Assembly (NCBI GenBank): GCA_977016875.1
Contig: CDRNST010000072.1
Span: 372,001 to 436,000, forward strand
Direction: 5' to 3'
Length of the DNA: 64,000 nucleotides
Origin: Pavona decussata
Taxonomy: Eukaryota
Below, piece by piece: positions 52,220-64,000 of the stretch. A program made the position numbers and the translations under genes. Below the pieces are notes generated by a model, which worked only from the letters and a program-made list of their open reading frames with translations, was not told the origin of the DNA and did no database searches. Every line of letters begins with the position of its first letter. The first letter of the stretch is position 1.

Positions 52220-53356
52220 TATGAAAAGAGCTAATTGGGGAGAAGATAATGGTAGCTGGGGGGTTGATGACCCACAAAAACGTTCATAAAAAATTTCAAA
52301 CGACCCCCATGCTCTCTGGTACGATTTTTTGGTGCCGGCCGTTAGAGCTGAGCCTAATAAATCCCTCAAGTGAGTGACCAACTCTCCGGTAGAAGGTTCG
52401 CTGGTACTGTTGTTGGGAATTCGTCTGCCTCTGGCGCTAGTTCCTTGAAGTTGTCTACCTGAAATCGGGAGAGGTAATCGGCTTGGCTGTTCTGCAAGCC
52501 AGGAACATGCCGAGCACGAAATAAAATATTATAACGTAGGCAACTAAGAACCAGGTCACGTAGAAAAACCATAACTGACTTATGCTTAGATGTTTGCTTG
52601 CTGATAATGTCCACGAGGGCAGCATTATCGGTGAAAAATAGCACGCAGCGGTTAGCCATGCTAGTCCCCCAAATGTGGACAGCAATAACAATGGGAAAAA
52701 ACTCGAGGAAAGTAATGTTGAAACTGTGCCATTTGTCAGGAAAAGCGCTGCCAAACCAGTGCTTTCCAAATATCGCACCATAACCTTTTGATGCCGCAGC
52801 ATCCGTATATAATTTAAGTGTAGAAGAATTGTCCCAGCGATCTGACTATAAAAAAATCCCTGCCATTAAAATTATCTAGAAAGTCTAACCACATGCGTAT
52901 ATCAAGTTTAGCTTCTCTGTTTAAACGGATGTGGTGATGAGGGCGTGTCAGACCGGTGGTAAGGTCAATTAAGCGGCGTAAAAATGCACGGCCTAGGATG
53001 ACAACTGAACAACAAAAATTCAACAGGCCGATTAAAGATTGCAGCTCGCGCAGAGTAACGGAGCGCTTCTTATAAAATTGATGAAGTAAGGTGCGACATT
53101 TGGTAAGATTGTCTAGCGATAACCTGGCCTCCTGATGCACAGAATCAAGCTCTATGCCAGCGAATTCTAAAGTGGTACCTGGTCCTACTGTTTTCTCTTC
53201 AGCAATTGGGACTCCGGGGAATTTGCACATATCGAGAAAGTGGTGTAGATCTTTGCTGCATTGATCTTTATTAGGTGCAATTAACAAAAAATCGACTAAA
53301 ATATGTAAAACGGCAGAGACATGTAAGTGTTGCGTGGCAAGCCACTCCAAAGACGA
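52220..53356 (-). mobile_element. Ngaro copy D (RT/RH and YR start only)
   Basis: Near-identical to 9412-10548 with the same host junction TACAAA|TATG. Confidence 0.9.
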
Positions 53357-55173
53357 TCTGACTGCCCAGGTTGCCAACGCTGTTATGGAGACTGGAATCT
53401 TTGACAGATGCCTTCCATGCTTTCTTTTTGCCAATTTGAAACAACCCACTTGTAGAATCACAACCAGTTAAAGCATGGAACGCTGGCATCGATGCGCAGA
53501 CACTCCCACCAAGGTTCTCAGCAATAAGATGGACAGGGATAAAGCTAACCTTATCCTTGACGTCATTCTTGAACCAAATTTCGTCACATTGTATCATCTA
53601 GAATGCATGGATAGCTAATACAGCAACGTCTGTGTCAGGGGACTGGATGACAATCCTGTCTTTAGTGGAAGAAGCTTTCCAAGCATGAAGGATCATCCTT
53701 GTGTCAGCTTCTTCGTGGTCTGATCTTAGCTCTGCAAGGGGATCCGTGCGTCCACAGGTTACAACAACTGCATCTGTTGGATCTTTAAAGCCACCTCCAA
53801 TCACCATTTCTTTACCCGGAAGTAAATATTGTTCACCCAAACAGCACCATTTTTGGCAAAGAAATCTGGAAAGGTTAAGTGTGTTATTCTGGTTGCTGAT
53901 GAACTTTCCCCATCGCTTTGGAACAGGTGTGTGCTTGTTTGTGATTTGGATCCCAAGTGCTCTGCTCAATCTTTCGTTTTCCTTTATGGACTCTCGAACA
54001 TCGTAGCAGTTAAAGCTTATACACTGACCTTGCCGTAGAGGTGTGAAAGGGTAAAGTAAAGTACCTTTCAGCGAGGTCTCCGAATGTGCGGCAACCTGCA
54101 GACTTCAACATCTGGATAAGAGCCATTGCATCAAAATGAATGCTGTTGAAAGGGTACTTTCAGGAAGTCTTCCCTGTGCCTGACACTCTTGTTCAACCTC
54201 GGCCATTAGAGAACTTTTTGTCGTTTTCCGCAAAGCACCATCTGCGTGTGCCAATGCAAAGGGCACAGTTGACAGTTCATAGCTCAGGACCTCTTTCACA
54301 TCAACATCACGACACTTTTCAGCAATCAGAAGTCTACCGAACAAATTCCGTCTGTGCACATGATGTGACTGGTTTTTGCCATAGAGGCAAATATTTTCAC
54401 ATTGACTTTCGATATCTTGCTCCAAAAAGATACCTCACAACTGTCCATTCTTTGTATGGTAAACTTCTTTGCTTCTTCTGTTCCTGTCTTGAAACAGTCA
54501 ATGAGCTGCGTTGCAGAATCGTTTGGCATAACTACGCAAGTGGCGATGTTTCGGTAGAGGAATTGGATCTTCTTTCGATGCCTCACTCAAATCAAAAGGG
54601 TTTGACATGGTAGTAGCAATGGTGTTGATCAGCTTCTGAACATCAGCTCTATTCCTCTTTACTCTCTGAGAACTTGCCTCCTTGTGGGTTCCAATCTTGT
54701 CAGAGTCTTCAAGGTTGCAAAGTTGCTTGGTTGCAGAAGTAATCTCAGCCCTCTTGTGACTAGTTAGAAACCATCTGTCTAATGCAGAAGCATTTTGTGT
54801 TAAGTCAACAATACCTCCTCTATAGTCTTGCTGTCGAGGTTGATGGTTTGTTCCAAGGCCATGTCGGTCCAAACTTGGCTGAAACGTTGACTAAATCTAC
54901 ATACTGGATGGTTGCCGTTTAGGAACTCTTCGTGAACTTCTGGAGCGTGAGTGGGAAGCAAATGCATATCTGCCAAGTAGATTGGGAGCCACCTGCAATT
55001 GAAAAGAGCAAGAGATCATAACTAGGAGACACGTCAAAGGGGATAACGTTAGAAAATTAACAAATCGCAAATGCGCTTTGGCAGACACTAACAACAAACG
55101 TATTTTATTAATGCGTGTGACGAAGATTTTATCCCATATTATCCCAATTCAGATATATTGAAATTCAGTTTTT
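53355..55173 (-). mobile_element. Partial duplicate of the Academ element
   Basis: Near-identical to about 15194-17034; similarity stops abruptly at the Maverick terminus. Confidence 0.9.
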
Positions 55174-55218
55174 AGTAGTATAGATATTGGGGGTACGAGC
55201 GCAACCCCCCTTTTCCAA

Positions 55219-55402
55219 TTACATCTGAAAATCTCCACACGAATTGTATGAAATTTCTTCTGGTCACCTTTTTTACATCTGAAAATCTCCACACGAATTG
55301 TATGAAATTTCTTCTGGTCACCTTTTTTACATCTGAAAATCTCCACACGAATTGTATGAAATTTCTTCTGGTCACCTTTTTTACATCTGAAAATGTCCAC
55401 AC
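55219..55402. repeat. 54-bp tandem repeat (about 3.4 copies) in the Maverick terminal region
   Basis: Unit TTACATCTGAAAATCTCCACACGAATTGTATGAAATTTCTTCTGGTCACCTTTT. Confidence 0.95.
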
Positions 55403-55479
55403 TAATTACATCGAATTTTGACTGAGGGGCTACGAGCGCACCTCATTGAATCTTCATACAATTTTGTGTGAAGATTGAA

Positions 55480-55620
55480 TTAGATTCTTCTCTTAATCTC
55501 TTGGTCTCTTCTTCTCTTAATGTCTTTGTGTCCGTAGGCGAAACTTGTCACACCGTTTTCATGTATGTATCTCTTATCATCAAAGCAACTTAGTGATGTT
55601 TTTCCCTTTGTGGCTTTCCT
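55480..55620 (-). pseudogene. C-terminal stub of protein-primed DNA polymerase B
   Basis: KTSLSCFDDKRYIHENGVTSFAYGHKDI matches the characteristic Polinton pPolB C-terminus; no upstream polymerase motifs are present. Confidence 0.8.
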
Positions 55621-55878: not shown

Positions 55879-56368
55879 GGTTGTGTATGCTCAGTAGTTA
55901 ACCATTGGAAAAAGCAGGGGCCTTTGGTTACCGAACTGTATACACAACCCCTATAGAATGGTGAAAAACCCCTGCCGTCATTCTATAGGTTGACTGAATA
56001 ATAAAATAATAAAACTGTCGCCCTAAGATCGGTGGCAAGCTGTTGGGTAGAGCTTAGTTGGGTTAATCCCTTCAGAAGTGCCGGTTCAGCCCACACCGTA
56101 GGGCGATAAATACAAAATATGGCTTCAATCAAGGAGTCTGATAGTGCTCAAAAGAGCGGTGTGGTGGAGGGCAAAGCCTTGTAAAGTGGGTAAAATAAAA
56201 TAAATAAAATAAATAAAAAAACCAAAAAAAACCTCTCATGAGGGACAGGGTGGGAAAAATTAAAAAAGAGTAAAGTCCCTCATGAGAGGTCTGGTGGCCA
56301 CCAGTTTTGGTTTTTTATTACATCTCGTGACGATAGCTGTTTTTTCTATTCACGGTCATGAATAGAAA
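55879..56368 (+). ncRNA. Candidate structured RNA/ssDNA module (hairpin cluster with kissing loops)
   Basis: At least five successive stem-loop domains; wobble positions read G-U on the + strand. Transcription is not demonstrated. Confidence 0.4.
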
Positions 56369-56395: not shown

Positions 56396-56881
56396 TTACG
56401 CAAAGATCATATCGTATTTTTTCTCAAACCTGTCAACAATCGGCGAATTGTCGAGAATGAAATCGTCATTTTGTTGAAGTTTTGACAACAGTTCTGACTC
56501 GTTGAATTGACCAGATCTGAGAATGTCTTTTATCTGAATCAACAGATGGCCATACGTTTGAAAAGCATACTGAACTTGGTGCAGTCTGATTTCAAGGTTT
56601 TTGTGTTTCATATACGCTTGAATAAGCACACTCGCAGACGCGATGGCAATTAGACTGACTCCTGCAGTCGCTATCGAACTGGCTAAACCACCGGTGGCAA
56701 ACACAATGCTTGAGATATTGCCTGCCAACTGCCACGCTTTCAATCGTTTGTAAGCAGCCTTGTACATCCACATCTTTTTGTGGTACGTTCTGTAATACGA
56801 TTTCAGTTCAGTTATCTGTGATTCGGTCAACTCTTCAGATATGTGGTTGAAATTGATGACCGATTTTTTTGTTTTTACCAT
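56396..56881 (-). CDS. Maverick small protein with a central hydrophobic hairpin (putative membrane-active protein)
   Basis: Intact 161-aa ORF; ISSIVFATGGLASSIATAGVSLIAIASASVLI flanked by helical charged regions. Confidence 0.75.
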   Translation of the reverse strand: MVKTKKSVINFNHISEELTESQITELKSYYRTYHKKMWMYKAAYKRLKAWQLAGNISSIVFATGGLASSIATAGVSLIAIASASVLIQAYMKHKNLEIRLHQVQYAFQTYGHLLIQIKDILRSGQFNESELLSKLQQNDDFILDNSPIVDRFEKKYDMIFA

Positions 56882-56890
56882 CTTTATTAT

Positions 56891-59305
56891 TTACTCAAGA
56901 TAAGATCTATTTCTTTTTTCCTCAAGCAAAATCCTGTGAAAGTCTAAACTGTCGACGTCAATAAACTTATCAACCAAACCGATTTTATTGACGAAGCCGT
57001 CATAGTCGATTTCAAATTGGTTACTTTGAAAATTAATAGTTCCGCTTAATGTTTTGGTTGCGTGAGCATTATAATTGCTTAGCGCCATCTTGTACAGACG
57101 TTGGGTGGCATCATAACATATCCAAATGCACAACTGTTTATTTTTGAAATCGCTTGTGAAACTGATTGACTGTTTTCCTCTTAGAAAGTCGATCTGAATT
57201 TGATCAGCAGTAATTAAAAATCTTGGATAAAATTTTATGTGAAACGCTCTCGTGTTAGACCAACTGATTGTTCCTGTTTTGGTTTCATCATGCAAAAAAG
57301 ACATGAAGAATGTAAAGCTGCTTGATTGATTAAAAACTTTTGTTGTATGGATACGTGTTTTTGTACTGAGTTTCAAACCATTTTTGACGTCATAGTCGTT
57401 GATAAAACGATCTGTTTCAAGGATAAAATTAGGTAGAACACTATTTATCACAACACCGCTAACACCCTTGATGAGACCAAAGCGTGATGTTTCTAATAAA
57501 TCATAGAATTCGGAAAATATACTTCTGTAAGCATGACCTTTCGTGTGATATGACACGGAATCCAAACTTGACTTATTGACAGCGTCTCCATCATCGATCG
57601 GGTCGGAAAGATGCACTATTCTTTTGTTATTCATGTCTAGTTCAGTCTGCATTTTCATGTCTCCATTTTCGTACTTGAACATAACATTATCCAACCCATC
57701 GTAAATATCTGGATACACACTATCCGACCAATCTTTTACACCGTAAACAACCAGATGGCACTGCACCGGTGTCGCTGTAGCTGTGCCGTGCATCGTCAAA
57801 TAGATGTAATCTGGAGTTTGTTTGCTGTTGTTATTGAATTGAACCAATAGCTTGCTATAATCAGTGAAATCACGCTGTGTTGATTTGTGGATATACGCAG
57901 AAGATGCAGTACATGATAATTGAATATTGGTCATTTCCGGTGGGTAGAATTCAAACATGATAGTGTATGTTCCTATAGCGAGAGAATAAAGATTGAAACC
58001 TATCCTTGATCGATAATTATTTGTGCCTGCATCCTTTGTCAAAACTATGCTGTAAGCCTTTTTATTTTGATGTGGAGATTCATTGAAATCAACAATACCA
58101 GTCACCGTGATATTGTACTCCGAACTGCTCTCGTCACTATCTATAAGATATTTGAATTGATTTGTTTTATGACTGCTGACAAGATGACTCTGCTCCAATC
58201 TGTCCTCAAAATATTTTTTGGTAGTAGCGTCATTATCATCAGTCGGTTTGGCGATGGATTTAATCTGTTTTTCATTCATATCGAGGTTGCCTGTCATTGG
58301 GATACTTCCATCTTTTTTCAAATATGCACTCAAATCACTTCCACCAGATGGTATTTTAGCTATTTCTGTATCAACATATGCTTTAGTGGAAGCATCATTG
58401 GGATCGGAAGGATTTCCAAGAACGATTATTTTATGACCTCTCATATCTAAATCACCACCAAGAGCATTTGGTGTCAACCTGTTGAGAAAGTTATGGTCAA
58501 CGTAGTATTTATTGACAGCATCATTATTATCAACAGGTTGAGCCATACCTTTGATTCTATGATTGTCCATATTGAGGTCACTATTAGATACTTTTTGTAA
58601 ATATTTTGTATCACAAAAACCTAAATTGACAACATCAGATGAATTTTGAATATTGTACCCAAGGTTGGTGATTTGTTGATTACCAATATTAAGATCACCA
58701 GTCATTGCAACACTGCCATCTTTTTTCACATACGCAGATAAATCAGTTGATGGTATTTTTTTAATCTCATCATCCACATATTTTTTATTCGCCGCTTGAT
58801 CGTTATTATTGGGTTTTACCACATTAAGATCAAAAAATGTTTTCCGCCCGGTAATATGTTGTTCAGTCGATGTTACCATAATTTCGCTTTTTTTACGGCC
58901 ACCATAGCCGTCAAAGTTTTGCAAATCCGGTACATGAAGGTGAATATTGTCATAAGACTGATGTTCAGTCATTAATCTAACACTATTGAAGCTACCAGCA
59001 CCGTCTGGTATGTCCTGCAGATAGACACTGTTGGTATGAACGCTACCCGTGTTGCTGTAAATTACTGCTTTATCGGCTTGCACATTACCAGGGGAATTAT
59101 CTAACGATTGAATTTGACTATTTGTGACTGCATCATTGGGATTGGTTCCTTGTTTGACATTTACAAGTTTTTTGTTTTGAATATCGTAATTTCCATTTTC
59201 GTCTAACTTAAAACCAACCCCCGGAAAACCCCTCTCACCTCTCTCTCCTTTTCCTGAAGGATAATTGAAATTTAAAACTCCGTTGTAAAAACTCATTTTA
59301 TTCAA
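56891..59305 (-). CDS. Maverick fibre/spike-like protein (collagen triplets, repeated neck motifs, C-terminal beta-rich domain)
   Basis: Intact 804-aa ORF; GKGERGERGFPG; seven repeats of G(D/N)LDMxxxxIxxLxxPxxxxDAxxKxYVD type; two copies of DLSAY(V/L)KKDGS. Confidence 0.75.
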   Translation of the reverse strand: MNKMSFYNGVLNFNYPSGKGERGERGFPGVGFKLDENGNYDIQNKKLVNVKQGTNPNDAVTNSQIQSLDNSPGNVQADKAVIYSNTGSVHTNSVYLQDIPDGAGSFNSVRLMTEHQSYDNIHLHVPDLQNFDGYGGRKKSEIMVTSTEQHITGRKTFFDLNVVKPNNNDQAANKKYVDDEIKKIPSTDLSAYVKKDGSVAMTGDLNIGNQQITNLGYNIQNSSDVVNLGFCDTKYLQKVSNSDLNMDNHRIKGMAQPVDNNDAVNKYYVDHNFLNRLTPNALGGDLDMRGHKIIVLGNPSDPNDASTKAYVDTEIAKIPSGGSDLSAYLKKDGSIPMTGNLDMNEKQIKSIAKPTDDNDATTKKYFEDRLEQSHLVSSHKTNQFKYLIDSDESSSEYNITVTGIVDFNESPHQNKKAYSIVLTKDAGTNNYRSRIGFNLYSLAIGTYTIMFEFYPPEMTNIQLSCTASSAYIHKSTQRDFTDYSKLLVQFNNNSKQTPDYIYLTMHGTATATPVQCHLVVYGVKDWSDSVYPDIYDGLDNVMFKYENGDMKMQTELDMNNKRIVHLSDPIDDGDAVNKSSLDSVSYHTKGHAYRSIFSEFYDLLETSRFGLIKGVSGVVINSVLPNFILETDRFINDYDVKNGLKLSTKTRIHTTKVFNQSSSFTFFMSFLHDETKTGTISWSNTRAFHIKFYPRFLITADQIQIDFLRGKQSISFTSDFKNKQLCIWICYDATQRLYKMALSNYNAHATKTLSGTINFQSNQFEIDYDGFVNKIGLVDKFIDVDSLDFHRILLEEKRNRSYLE

Positions 59306-59308
59306 TGT

Positions 59309-59959
59309 CTAGATAATTTGTGTAAAATTTTTTGCGTTAAACTTTCGGGGTTTGTCGGAATACAAAAATGTGTGAGGCTCATTTGTTGCGTATTCGTATA
59401 TTTTTTCGTTTATCCCCAAATCTCTGCAAATTGAATTCTTTTCTCTTGTGTTTGGAAAATCGTAAATGCAGTAATGGGAACAGTTTAATCTAATCGTTTT
59501 ATCCGTGTTGTAAAAAGACTGAGAAAGATAGACGCAACTGCAGTTTTTGTTTCGAGAGTTTGTGAAATAATTCCTAATTTCCCTATCGTTAGCTGTTCCA
59601 GTGTTCAAGTAATCGTCGAAAATTACCAACTTTTGATGCTCGTCGTTCATTTCCGACAATGGCAAAATATCTCCGTTACTGGCTTCAATCATGTCATAAC
59701 CGTATTTTTTTGAAAAAGGTTCGAAAAAATCTAACAAAAATCGATACTTATCCTGTTCCAAGTTTTTTGCATACAAGTATATCTTATCGTAATACAAAAG
59801 TGGTTTCATTATCATGTGAACCAAAAGGTTGGTTTTTCCACAACCGCTAGGCGCACAAATCAACATTCTAAAGCATCTATCGGGCATGAATTCACATCCA
59901 GGTATCTGTCGAAAATTGTTATCACTATAACCTTTGACATCGTAGTTTGGTATTTCCAT
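59309..59959 (-). CDS. A32/FtsK-like genome packaging ATPase
   Basis: Walker A ICAPSGCGKT, Walker B LVIFDD, arginine-finger region SRNKNCSCVYLSQSF, IRLNC. Confidence 0.92.
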   Translation of the reverse strand: MEIPNYDVKGYSDNNFRQIPGCEFMPDRCFRMLICAPSGCGKTNLLVHMIMKPLLYYDKIYLYAKNLEQDKYRFLLDFFEPFSKKYGYDMIEASNGDILPLSEMNDEHQKLVIFDDYLNTGTANDREIRNYFTNSRNKNCSCVYLSQSFYNTDKTIRLNCSHYCIYDFPNTREKNSICRDLGINEKIYEYATNEPHTFLYSDKPRKFNAKNFTQII

Positions 59960-60097: not shown

Positions 60098-61120
60098 ATG
60101 AGTTTGCAAAAATGGAAAGAAATGGCCGAAAAAAGGACGAAAGCCGGCCAAACTGCCAACGCAATTAGGGAAAGTATTAAACAAAAGAAAATCGCTGATA
60201 CAATGGGAGAAGCTGAAGCAGAAAAACTTTTCAGACCAATAACATCCGGTTTGAAAGATTTGAAACTGACTCAGGCTAAACCTGTAAAAAGGATTTTCAG
60301 AAAAAAAGCGCCAGCAGGTTTTCCCCCAGATTATGGAATAAATATTGAGGATGAAGGAATTCCAGATTACAATCTAGAAGATTTGTTTGATGAGGGAGTT
60401 CAACCACAAGATACAAAACAACTTGTTCCAAAACCACCCTCTTACGACGATGTCTTGAAAGATTTGGAAACAGGAAAAAAGAAAATGTCGATCGATCCGG
60501 AGTTTATGCCGGAACTAGAGACAATACCTGAAGATCCTCCGGAATACGATGAAGATGAAGTTCCGGATTATTCAATTTTCGATGAAGACAGAATAAATGA
60601 GACTTTGGACCAACTTGGTTTATCAAATTATGATGATATTGAAGCACAACTCAGCAGGGTTGATATGACAGAAAAAACTAGACAGAATTATTTAACAAAG
60701 AAAATCGAAGAGGCGACAAAAGAAAGACGACGATTTTCGGGATACAAAACAGACATTACAAAGAAGCTGAACAAAGGTGAGATTAGTCAGGCTGAAGCTC
60801 AGTTTGGAAGAAAAATTATTGACGATATGAGAAAAGTTTTAAACGACTATATTGGTTACCACAAAAGCAAGTTGAAGAGTATCAAAGGTTCGGGTTTGAG
60901 AAGATCCGCAGGTAGGCAAACCAAACGGGGTGGAAACGCTTTTTTCATAAATCCAGACAATGCTATAAAAAAGTTGCAGTTAATCGTCGGTTCGATTGAA
61001 GCAGGAAATAACAGCATTGAGTTAAGAAACATGGGTGTAGCAATTTTGGATATTTTATTGAAAAACAACATTATCAACAAACCTGTGTACAATAATTTTT
61101 ACAAAAACTTTTTCGGATAA
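60098..61120 (+). CDS. Polinton PZ-like conserved protein
   Basis: Likely start MSLQKWKE at 60098; C-terminal KLQLIVGSIEAGNNS...ILDILL motif; acidic Pro-rich middle. Confidence 0.75.
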   Translation: MSLQKWKEMAEKRTKAGQTANAIRESIKQKKIADTMGEAEAEKLFRPITSGLKDLKLTQAKPVKRIFRKKAPAGFPPDYGINIEDEGIPDYNLEDLFDEGVQPQDTKQLVPKPPSYDDVLKDLETGKKKMSIDPEFMPELETIPEDPPEYDEDEVPDYSIFDEDRINETLDQLGLSNYDDIEAQLSRVDMTEKTRQNYLTKKIEEATKERRRFSGYKTDITKKLNKGEISQAEAQFGRKIIDDMRKVLNDYIGYHKSKLKSIKGSGLRRSAGRQTKRGGNAFFINPDNAIKKLQLIVGSIEAGNNSIELRNMGVAILDILLKNNIINKPVYNNFYKNFFG

Positions 61121-61130
61121 ATAAGTAAAT

Positions 61131-61889
61131 ATGGAAAGACAATTGGTTTTATCTTCTCACAGCGTTAAAAAACAAGGTAAGAATAAACCCAGTGATTTCA
61201 CAATCAAATACAATGAACCGATAAGACTAAACCCAAACAACACGTATGTTCTTGGTCTTGACAGAATTATAACAATGTCGTTCACTTGGTTTAATATCAA
61301 TTCGGATTTGAAAAACCAGCTCATAAAATACTCTTCAGACGGAGGAAAAACATGGAAAGACATTAATTTTCCACCCGGAACGTGGAACTATGTTGATTTT
61401 AACGATCACATCAAGGAAGAGACAAAAACAGGAACCGCAAGCAACCCCTCATATCCGATTACATTGGAATTCGACAACACAACATATAAAACAATCATTA
61501 CATTGGCAGCAAACTACCAACTCGATTTGAGACCGTCAAATTTTAACGACTTGATCGGTTTTAACAAAAAAATTTTGACCAGTACTGAAAATACTGGTGA
61601 CTACACACCAAATCTTAGTCAAGACACGGAGATTCTCAACATTCACTGCGATTTGATTTCAGAAAGTCTTGTCGATGGGGATGAAACAGACATCTTGTAT
61701 TCTTTTGGGACAAACGACTTGACACCTTCATATGCTTTTACTAAAGAGCCTTTGAGGGTTCAATTTAACCCAGTCAACAAGTATCTAATCAACAACATAC
61801 GGATATACATCACCGATGGACAGAGAAGGATAATCGATTTGAATAATGCAGATACCGCATTTTCATTAATTTTGAAAGAAAAAATATAA
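61131..61889 (+). CDS. Minor capsid protein (penton, single jelly roll)
   Basis: NKPSDFTIKYNEPIRL, FPPGTW, LNIHCDLISESLVDG, INNIRIYITDGQRRIIDLN. Confidence 0.88.
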   Translation: MERQLVLSSHSVKKQGKNKPSDFTIKYNEPIRLNPNNTYVLGLDRIITMSFTWFNINSDLKNQLIKYSSDGGKTWKDINFPPGTWNYVDFNDHIKEETKTGTASNPSYPITLEFDNTTYKTIITLAANYQLDLRPSNFNDLIGFNKKILTSTENTGDYTPNLSQDTEILNIHCDLISESLVDGDETDILYSFGTNDLTPSYAFTKEPLRVQFNPVNKYLINNIRIYITDGQRRIIDLNNADTAFSLILKEKI

Positions 61890-61907: not shown

Positions 61908-62378
61908 ATGCAGCCGTATAATTACAAAAGAATTTTTCATCCGAAACTCGGAAGATTTGTTTTCCAACACAAAGGATCGGGTTTGATTGTTGATAATATT
62001 TTCAAACCGATGAAAAAAATGTTGGCAACAGCGACAAAAGCTGTTTTGAAACCTCTTGCTAAAAAAGCTTTGAAATCGGGAATAGAAAGTGCTGGCGACA
62101 AAATCGGAAAGAAAGCTGTCGACGTTGCTGGTAAAAAATTTTCTGAAAGTCCAGGTTTAACGTTTTTGAAAGAGATGGGTAAAAAAACTAAAGACTCCAC
62201 CGGACCAACGGTCAGAGATTACAACGGAATGTTGAATTCAATGATCCAATTTTCACAACCGAAGGTAGGGGTTTCACAACCAAAGGTAACCCAACCCGCC
62301 GAAGAAGATTATAATTTGATTTTGAATCGAATGATTTCCGGAAGCGGGATGAAAAAAAGGAGAAAAAATAAAAAATAA
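61908..62378 (+). CDS. Basic virion core-like protein with putative protease sites
   Basis: 156 aa, Lys-rich amphipathic segment, HKGSG and ISGSG motifs, basic C-terminal tail. Confidence 0.7.
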   Translation: MQPYNYKRIFHPKLGRFVFQHKGSGLIVDNIFKPMKKMLATATKAVLKPLAKKALKSGIESAGDKIGKKAVDVAGKKFSESPGLTFLKEMGKKTKDSTGPTVRDYNGMLNSMIQFSQPKVGVSQPKVTQPAEEDYNLILNRMISGSGMKKRRKNKK

Positions 62379-62405: not shown

Positions 62406-63698
62406 ATGATGAGTTTCAGAACAAGTGAAAAACTTCAAAGATACGAAATGGTTAGATTTTCTCTTGACAATGTTATTGAGGTGCCCGGAAACAACAATTC
62501 TCAGAAAAAAACAGGCTATAAATTTACAATCAACGACAGATCGACTTTTTTCGATTATTTTAACGGGTATTTTGAGGTTACCAAGGAGTTACAGAAAAAA
62601 GCTGACGGTGCGGGTTATGCAGCCGCTGATAGAATCACCATGATCAATGGAGCACATTCTCTAATCAAACACATGGTGATCAAATCCGCAGGAAAAATCG
62701 TTTACGAAAGTGACAACATTCACAGAATCACAAATGCTAAAAATTTACTTGAGTATAGCGACGATTTCAGTAGATCGGTTGCTAAAAACAGTTTTTGGTA
62801 TCTTGATACAAACGGATCAACAGCAAACACAAATACAGGTTTTGAAGCAAGACGAATTTTAACTCAAGCTACAAACAATGATGGAAGTGGCGGTGCAAAA
62901 AGCATCAATGAAATCATTCCATTAAATAGGTACAGTTTTTTCGAGGAATTGGAAGACAAGATGATTCCACCCATGCAGCTCACAATTGAAATTACATTGA
63001 ACGATGATTCTGAATTGATTCACAAAGCGGCCGCTGCAGACGACGGTCGTGTTGTTGTGACTCGATTTTATCTTTGGCTTCCAAAAATGGTTCCAAAGGA
63101 TAGTGAATTTAATGAATTTGTAAAAGATTTTTTGAAACCGAGCAAATGGGTTTACATGAGAGATTTATACAACCAGAGTGCAAATACAAGAGCTGTTCAA
63201 AACATGTTTCAAATCAGTCCCGCCATCGACAATGTAAAACATGTATTTGTTTATTTGCAGCGAACCGATGGCCCAAACAACGAGGAATCTGAGAGAACAC
63301 CGTATGTTTACGATGCTTTCAAATTGAATGCTGCAGATTCAAACTCCAGTCTTGCATCGTGCCGACTAGAATATGGAAACAGTACTTTTTATCCTGAATT
63401 GGAGTACGATGCAGATTCAAAAGTCAGAATCTTTAACGATCTGATGTCTTATGCTTACAGAAAAAACGATCTCAACACTGGAACGCAGTTAAATCTCCAC
63501 AATTTCGATGCTCTTTACGGTCTTGTTTATTTCGATTTGACTTTCCAAAAAGAGACTGTCACACGAGACCCAAAACAACTTATTTTAAATTTTAGATTAA
63601 ACACTGCTCCGACAGCCAATGTTAGAGCACATGCCATCGTTTTTCATGAAAGTGAAATAATTGTGGATAAAAGAGGAAACGAACTTATGATTGTTTGA
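62406..63698 (+). CDS. Major capsid protein (double jelly roll, PY/hexon-like)
   Basis: Intact 430-aa beta-rich ORF in the morphogenetic cluster; NGAHSLI, NLLEYSDDF, IPLNRYSFF, KHVFVYLQ, YPELEY, LVYFDLTFQ. Confidence 0.85.
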   Translation: MMSFRTSEKLQRYEMVRFSLDNVIEVPGNNNSQKKTGYKFTINDRSTFFDYFNGYFEVTKELQKKADGAGYAAADRITMINGAHSLIKHMVIKSAGKIVYESDNIHRITNAKNLLEYSDDFSRSVAKNSFWYLDTNGSTANTNTGFEARRILTQATNNDGSGGAKSINEIIPLNRYSFFEELEDKMIPPMQLTIEITLNDDSELIHKAAAADDGRVVVTRFYLWLPKMVPKDSEFNEFVKDFLKPSKWVYMRDLYNQSANTRAVQNMFQISPAIDNVKHVFVYLQRTDGPNNEESERTPYVYDAFKLNAADSNSSLASCRLEYGNSTFYPELEYDADSKVRIFNDLMSYAYRKNDLNTGTQLNLHNFDALYGLVYFDLTFQKETVTRDPKQLILNFRLNTAPTANVRAHAIVFHESEIIVDKRGNELMIV

Positions 63699-63743: not shown

Positions 63744-64000
63744 ATGACACAATTGTATGAAATCAACATTTCACTTTCTGAAAATCAGAAAAAAACTTTG
63801 AGTAAAGCCTATCATGAAAAGGAAACGATTACATTGCGTTTGAAAAACGACGCTCTATCTGGGTCCGATACTCTTTTAGTACCAAAAACAACTGTAAACA
63901 GGTTGGAAAAGAATCGAAAACTAAACAAGGGAATGGATATCAAACTCGCAAAGTCAAACATTAGAAAACAAGTTGGTGGATCGCTTTTGAGTTCGATTTT
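63744..64000 (+). CDS. Maverick basic protein, partial (runs off the window)
   Basis: Manual translation MTQLYEINISLSENQKKTLSKAYHEKETITLRLKNDALSGSDTLLVPKTTVNRLEKNRKLNKGMDIKLAKSNIRKQVGGSLLSSI with no stop. Confidence 0.75.
   Translation, partial: MTQLYEINISLSENQKKTLSKAYHEKETITLRLKNDALSGSDTLLVPKTTVNRLEKNRKLNKGMDIKLAKSNIRKQVGGSLLSSI

Follow-up and report, generated by a model that had tools for sequence, protein, structure and literature searches.

Fibres have been described in several relatives of the Polinton (Maverick) elements of animals (the papers cited throughout were available in part, and statements about them extend to those parts). Protist polinton-like viruses, which depend on giant viruses, carry phage-like fibres of modular build, combining collagen, tail repeats and lectin modules of the Laminin G type, that are proposed to trimerise and to bind host surfaces (PMC12220804), and the proteomics of PgVV/Gezel-14T particles reports the tail-fibre-like protein Ltf alongside the capsid proteins (bioRxiv 2022.07.28.501842), which provides a precedent for a fibre on the virion. 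In oomycete Polintons a beta-helix protein is a candidate fibre (bioRxiv 2023.08.22.554363), and among adintoviruses one Alpha map bears a 'Fiber' label (Supplementary Fig S2 of PMC8502044), the legends of the same paper naming fibres for non-animal viruses. For the polintoviruses of stony corals, 'collagen-like' and 'virus structural' accessory proteins are reported (PMC11131425). Here, we describe the fibre gene of a Polinton whose left part lies in a 64,000-nucleotide stretch of the Pavona decussata assembly GCA_977016875.1 (contig CDRNST010000072.1, positions 372,001 to 436,000 of the forward strand; hereafter the window, numbered from its first letter). The element is an intact, complete, Alpha-adintovirus-like Polinton, and we read its fibre as a virion attachment fibre with exchangeable modules, a reading to which we give a probability of about 0.7; that such elements spread as particles attaching to cell surfaces is likely. 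A preliminary description of the window, made from the letters alone, had placed the fibre outside the canonical Polinton core, which is less unexpected than it implied given the fibres of protist polinton-like viruses, those of oomycete Polintons and the one adintovirus map label. The gene is of a known kind, and what is new is its predicted lectin anatomy together with the exchange, within one genome, of shafts and nine tips.

The fibre gene occupies 56891-59296 on the reverse strand, as do all of its parts given below, and encodes 801 amino acids (aa) counted from its ATG; the open reading frame reported earlier stands, and its stated 804 residues would need a TTG start at 59305, which is unlikely in an animal host. 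The protein begins with a family-specific peptide (aa 1-16; 59249-59296), putatively the capsid anchor, and four GXX triplets (aa 17-28; 59213-59248). These are the collagen-like triplets noticed earlier; being only four they are too short for a collagen domain in this copy, and the Pfam scan returned no Collagen match. Neck repeat 1 (aa 34-63; 59108-59197) is followed by a conserved segment with no assigned fold (aa 65-150; 58847-59104), which is present in 8 of 46 long representatives and was missing from the features listed earlier. Identity over aa 28-160 is 82-92% among the three Polinton families introduced below. The shaft continues with neck repeat 2, a half repeat (aa 146-175; 58772-58861), with a first DLSAY segment (aa 185-202) running into the degenerate neck repeat 3 (aa 200-229; together 58610-58744), and with neck repeats 4, 5 and 6 (aa 238-267, 280-309 and 335-364) around a second DLSAY segment (aa 321-338; together 58205-58585). 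A predicted internal beta-sandwich (aa 375-535; 57692-58174) then precedes neck repeat 7 (aa 546-586; 57539-57661), at which the tips of related fibres diverge, and a terminal beta-sandwich, likewise predicted (aa 587-801; 56894-57538).

When the repeats were scored with a leave-one-out ungapped profile against 1,000 shuffles, the scores of repeats 1, 4, 5, 6 and 7 were reached by none of the shuffles and that of repeat 2, whose conservation is limited to its second half, by 56; repeat 3, which is one residue out of register, was non-significant in this ungapped test. An earlier regex-based shuffle test (7 seen, mean 0.09) was circular and was set aside. The seven copies of an approximately 29-aa motif claimed in the preliminary description are therefore present, five of them full and significant and two (repeats 2 and 3) degenerate, and both DLSAYxKKDGSxxMTGxL segments are where it had seen them. 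Pfam Phage_T7_tail (PF03906) matched three stretches of the fibre at E 2.6e-13 (50.4 bits against a cut-off of 25.2), YadA_stalk remained below its cut-off (E 0.059), and the same scan did not detect a Peptidase_S74 chaperone. Hence the proposed likeness of the necks to phage tail fibres holds, and that to the HIM/YadA stalks of adhesins is weaker. In a PHROG search, 19 families were matched, 12 of them of the kind 'tail'. The closest PDB sequence matches were podophage tail fibre proteins with the same PF03906 neck (8vbx gp47, 8es4 gp44 and 23sh gp9; E 0.003-0.04, one neck each), the best being neck repeat 5 with the tail fibre gp47 of 8vbx (E 0.003).

Relatives of the fibre are numerous in the same genome, where a first search scored the best 56 of 448 candidates, many of which match aa 19-577 only, at 81-83%. 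A further 47 loci, picked for variety and hence non-random, were examined together with their neighbouring genes. The ATPase accompanied the fibre in 47/47 of these loci, and homologues of the penton and capsid candidates were found in 37 of the 38 10-kb loci. The core genes sort the 47 loci into families A (16 loci; the family of the window's element), B (14) and C (17). Family-B fibres have one small domain and, after it, a terminal domain of one of four types (7, 2, 4 and 1 loci), and family C has four tip types (7, 5, 3 and 2 loci). Tip exchange of the kind for which the preliminary description had suggested a survey is thus seen across the related elements of this genome, with nine tip types in 47 loci. 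The small tips are remotely related to one another (24-43% identity, E 1e-28 to 0.04), and the LamG tip matches none of them. At the other end of the protein, the first nine residues track the core-gene family in 45/45 loci with a readable pattern; of the two remaining fibre starts, one is a variant and the other could not be located. Among the top candidates scored in this genome with the queries P0191, P0240, P0124 and P0167, there was no close fourth family.

Families A and B have in common a single block of 1,593 bp with 85% DNA identity, which begins at neck 1 and ends in neck 7 (aa 28-558; 57624-59215), whereas their capsid and penton candidates give no DNA alignment. For one A-B pair, the shaft block is 84% identical in amino acids and 65% identical at 155 four-fold sites; in the same pair amino-acid identity is 35% for the capsid, 41% for the penton and 55% for the ATPase, and identity at their four-fold sites is 34-39%, with a random expectation of 31% (Fisher p 1.9e-5). 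Since the four-fold sites are also in common, plain conservation was rejected as an explanation, and an assembly chimera was ruled out by the presence of the block in 7/7 tested family-B loci on different contigs. A shaft block of 85% identity, bounded by necks, between elements whose capsid candidates are 35% identical points to recombination. Informative sites, which are non-independent, change sides accordingly: in the core genes 828 join B with C and 229 join A with B, in fibre aa 281-545 the counts are 242 for A with B and 42 for B with C, and aa 81-160 again favour B with C. Trees behave likewise, that of the ATPase joining B and C (100/99) and rejecting A with B (p 0.007), and those of the internal domain joining A and B (96/98 with 60 rows, 98/99 with 26 rows). 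On the sequence record, the shaft block has been exchanged between Polinton families, with breakpoints at the neck repeats. Head labels on the 60-row tree change 10 times where the least possible is 5, a count that is indicative only, as it includes truncated or weakly assigned rows (P0135, P0144-type fragments, P0152, P0167, P0200, P0250 and P0270).

Within family A, the window's copy and another locus (L028) share 98% DNA identity between fibre aa 374 and a point close to the left end, against ~80% in the capsid genes, a pattern that suggests whole-arm recombination within the family. Measured against 11 family-A copies, the ratio of non-synonymous to synonymous polymorphism (pN/pS) of the fibre is 0.15 in aa 1-160, 0.22 in the internal domain and 0.30 in the tip (overall 0.15-0.32), and the fibre is under purifying selection.

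An AlphaFold2 model of aa 375-801, built on 112 sequences, reached a mean predicted local distance difference test score (pLDDT) of 92.4 and bears out the internal and C-terminal beta-rich domains noted earlier. The tip is predicted to be a ConA/LamG-like lectin sandwich: a fold search with the terminal domain, as had been proposed for the C-terminal 200 aa, gave a VIA-align Z of 14.4 (root-mean-square deviation 3.2, 194 aligned) to the lectin domain of the pilin PilC (7oa7) and 13.7 to the Pan3 tailspike (9vyh), and in the viral structure library BFVD phage LamG proteins were the top matches. Matches to the neurotoxin folds HcN/NTNH represent the common LamG fold at ~10-14% identity and give no ground for a toxin function. 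The internal domain is predicted to be a CBM22/27/61-like (galactose-binding-like) sandwich, the search having been run with a family-B model whose domain is 86% identical to the window's copy (Z 10.7, root-mean-square deviation 3.6, 136 aligned, to CBM22 1h6x). The pair of family-B tip domains was also modelled (mean pLDDT 77.8), and the last of them matched, at a Z of 7-8 that lies in the common range, only small jelly rolls (nucleoplasmin, Cwp84).

A three-copy model of aa 534-801 scored 0.65 against 0.00 for the best of three controls, its runs agreeing in at least 88% of contacts with a partner pLDDT of at least 66. The score mark is one that was reached by 21/30 solved pairs and 0/23 single chains from microbes and by 17/29 solved pairs and 0/30 single chains from eukaryotes, in a calibration set that held two copies, the three-copy run itself being made without an alignment. 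The confident interface consists of the neck alone (aa 546-586), where the fibre is predicted to form a homotrimer; the elongated trimer first proposed thus passes, as a model, at the last neck, and because similar phage necks have already been solved this pass may stem from model memory. Taken together, a trimer model, a profile match to fibre repeats and linkage to capsid-type elements, the three points on which the preliminary description had staked its reading, were each found.

The fibre family extends well beyond this genome, with 2,563 of 7,987 scored database proteins matching the fibre and 568 representatives at 50% identity matching aa 375-801. In these relatives the internal domain, which some of them have in duplicate, precedes LamG or one of several other tips; the tips of P0191 and P0225 might, as a guess from sequence, be C1q/TNF-like. 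Some of the shafts contain long collagen (3 of 31 scanned relatives, the distant P0210, P0252 and P0215, carry full Pfam Collagen domains), and several homologues exceed the YadA_stalk cut-off. In P0247, of 760 aa, an A32-type ATPase is fused in frame to the fibre, which could reflect a genuine fusion or the loss of a stop codon. Among 51 metagenome loci, the ATPase adjoins the fibre in 7; most of the other loci match the neck only, and some resemble podophage genes. A scan of IMG/VR gave three pattern matches, one relative and no loci.

The element that carries the fibre was delimited by terminal inverted repeats of ~430 bp flanked on both sides by GTTTTT, as in Polinton/Maverick ends. The left 6-bp target-site duplication lies at 55168-55173 and the right copy at L013:8601-8606, L013 being the locus in which the element continues past the window. 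The left terminal repeat (55174-55602, forward strand) starts with AGTAGT and matches the right end (L013:8226-8600) at 99.7-100%, so that by coordinates the element measures 16,926 bp from 55174 to L013:8600. Inside the terminal repeat, 54-bp tandem repeats occur at 55219-55418, the left end having one copy more than the right. At 56231-56290, upstream of the 3' end of the genes, lies a perfect inverted repeat whose 16-bp arms are separated by a 28-base spacer. Directly downstream of the fibre, and on the same strand as it and the ATPase, is a gene for a SLATT-like two-helix membrane protein of 161 aa (56396-56881, reverse strand; NCBIfam SLATT_1 E 7.1e-5, below cut-off; Pfam SLATT_1 E 0.071). 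The A32-like packaging ATPase (216 aa; 59309-59959, reverse strand; Pfam Pox_A32 E 3e-8) ends 12 bp upstream of the fibre start. The genes beyond it are on the forward strand and comprise an open reading frame of 340 aa with no assigned function (60098-61120), the likely penton or minor capsid protein (252 aa; 61131-61889), a basic open reading frame of 156 aa (61908-62378), the likely double-jelly-roll major capsid protein (430 aa; 62406-63698) and the start of a 446-aa open reading frame (63744-64000) that continues into L013 and ends in an adenovirus-type protease (Peptidase_C5 E 0.002, just below cut-off). The penton candidate, one gene from the capsid candidate, gave no profile or PDB match and was named by its position, following the rule of PMC4028283. 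The capsid candidate gave no Pfam or PDB sequence match of its own and was named by its size, its place in the gene order and the match of its family-B homologue to PF21738 (DJR-like; E 0.019 over 203 aa, below cut-off).

Beyond the window, L013 holds genes for a PLA2-like protein (Phospholip_A2_4 E 2.4e-9), an integrase (Pfam rve E 4.4e-10 and Chromo E 1.3e-6) and a PolB candidate of 1,389 aa. The last was named as a protein-primed polymerase from motifs found in order at aa 702, 960, 1122 and 1222, which we take to be those of family-B polymerases; it gave no Pfam, PHROG or PDB polymerase match and no OTU match. A PLA2X gene defines the virion module of Alpha-class adintoviruses (PMC8502044), and the element has such a gene. 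A sequencing run labelled coral metagenome covers 30/30 bins of the element at a likeness of at least 85%, which makes a coral host likely. Contigs from two runs of a single sample also fall on the fibre gene, but these runs were classed as RNA by guesswork and were set aside as evidence of expression. Several neighbouring observations are recorded here. In families B and C the fibre is followed by a second small gene (L017:7651-8295 and equivalents), a version of which is carried by two family-A loci (L005:3927-4469 and L031) but not by the window's copy; it has a weak neck match, a helical middle of variable length and a conserved C-terminal domain of ~105 aa, and its product may be another fibre, an adaptor for the tip or a chaperone. 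Family B also has a gene like poxvirus VLTF3 (L017:9283-9885, reverse strand; Pfam E 4.8e-6), as has been reported in coral polintoviruses, and the window's element has no open reading frame at that place. At G000:C8:3857171-3886015, four near-identical fibre-bearing units are spaced by exactly 9,060 bp; they may be partial Polintons arrayed in tandem or may stem from the assembly. Fragments resembling reverse-transcriptase retroelements (LINE-type and DIRS-type motifs, recognised by eye) lie in the host DNA left of the Polinton at 45351-45910 and 52366-53230.

Compared with the Alpha (Mayetiola-class) adintoviruses of PMC8502044, the window's element has the same PolB, rve-chromo integrase, ATPase, protease and PLA2X and also the SLATT-like gene; the main texts of that paper and of PMC11131425, in the parts available, contain no anatomy, lectin tips or shuffling of an animal-element fibre. 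The words 'fiber' and 'fibre' are absent from the available part of PMC11131425, whose supplementary tables may annotate this fibre family; a preprint of 2026 that treats the mosaicism of these viruses deals with replicases, and in its available part fiber, fibre, receptor and lectin are absent; PMC11071296 and PMC8097293 add, in theirs, no fibre anatomy. No description of tip or shaft exchange in animal Polintons was found, most subscription journals lying outside the search. The fibres of protist polinton-like viruses belong to protist hosts and often end in a Peptidase_S74 chaperone, unlike the window's fibre, and intragenomic exchange of shafts and tips with mapped breakpoints is not among the features given in the available text. 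Podophage fibres resemble the window's fibre family in having a conserved base and exchangeable tips, and the Pan3 tailspike has the same tip fold, whereas here there is no tail, there are seven necks instead of one, and the carrier is an animal element probably of the double-jelly-roll type. The adenovirus fibre, which is trimeric, has an N-terminal anchor, a triple beta-spiral shaft and a receptor-binding tip with a TNF-like knob and recombines between types, would be alike in role; the window's fibre has no sequence match to adenovirus fibre families and combines a phage-neck shaft with a tip modelled as ConA/LamG. Trimeric autotransporter adhesins (YadA/Hia) have a related neck motif, for which the window's fibre is sub-threshold, and it lacks both the YadA head and a membrane anchor barrel (no anchor profile match), the model of the C-terminal 215 aa (pLDDT above 90) showing a lectin sandwich right through to the final helix and not an autotransporter beta-barrel.

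A number of observations weigh against the fibre being an exchangeable attachment organ. Particles, capsid docking and sugar binding are read here from genes and models, the penton and capsid candidates were identified by position and one sub-threshold Pfam match, identity to the matched lectin folds is only ~10% and a common fold shows no function, and the three-copy model does not place the lectin domains confidently. Family A has a single tip type, LamG, in 16/16 loci, and no region of the fibre has a pN/pS above 1, the tip being highest. For the internal domain, an approximately unbiased (AU) test does not reject B with C (p 0.21, and p 0.19 for a 20-row tree with two long outgroups, which gave no resolution), so that the case for exchange leans on distances, synonymous sites and sharp borders over topology; the exchange may have run in either direction between A and B. 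Finally, the best PHROG match is PHROG 2647, 'head decoration' (E 4e-21), level with tail fibre, and the position of the fibre at a vertex is for this reason something that we only infer. The same match favours, in place of a receptor-binding vertex spike, a trimeric decoration fibre on the facets of the major capsid protein, whose role would be to give the particle stability or to tether it loosely within mucus, and the second small neck-bearing gene of families B and C could then encode the true vertex or tip protein. We consider this unlikely, as the PHROG 2647 match is limited to the neck repeats and nine tip variants on a conserved shaft are the pattern of receptor-binding proteins. Tip replacement on a conserved shaft is established for receptor-binding phage tail fibres.

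It is also conceivable, and less probable again, that a virion fibre is directed at a partner and not at the animal cell, such as a giant virus acting as helper, a symbiotic alga, or microbial glycans by which the particle is carried into the host. The closest folds are indeed those of bacterial carbohydrate-binding modules and phage lectins, and giant viruses are needed by the protist polinton-like viruses (PMC12220804); the element is nevertheless integrated in many copies in an animal-type genome of 602 Mb and has a PolB, a protease and a PLA2-like protein of its own, and no evidence of a helper was found, though no search aimed at helpers was made. We give least credence to the idea that the fibre is a relic of elements that move inside the genome only and have become mosaic by neutral gene conversion at the repeated necks. 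Truncations or frameshifts affect many copies, gene conversion within a pool of hundreds could yield the same mosaic, and Maverick particles were unobserved as of PMC8097293, in the part available. Set against this are the pN/pS of 0.15-0.32 among family-A copies, the exchanged genes being in frame with intact tips, the near-identical terminal repeats and perfect target duplication of the window's copy, and the distance between tips, which are unrelated or only 24-43% identical and so imply a source pool wider than recent copies.

If the fibre does serve attachment on the virion, three chains would, as predicted, intertwine at the necks, with the CBM-like domain and the terminal ConA/LamG-like domain projecting from the stalk. 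The family-specific N-terminal peptide would fix the fibre to the capsid, with the penton vertex as the most likely site; the lectin-like domains would bind glycans on host cells or in mucus, and the PLA2-like protein would then help entry. Homologous recombination at the necks, whether within co-infected cells or from one integrated copy to another, could swap shafts and tips, and such swaps would alter the binding target of the particle while leaving each anchor with the capsid that it fits. More tentatively, and with somewhat less than even odds, animal Polintons may hold a phage-style repertoire of interchangeable receptor-binding tips, in which necks act as crossover points, the many integrated copies serve as a germ-line library from which even families with 35% identical capsids draw shafts and tips, and continuing extracellular infection selects the tips against host surface glycans. 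Whether animal Polintons make infectious particles is a question of long standing, and a lectin-tipped fibre under purifying selection with phage-like exchange of tips is hard to explain by intragenomic copying alone. With a shaft common to three families, the fibre offers a practical handle on animal Polinton particles.

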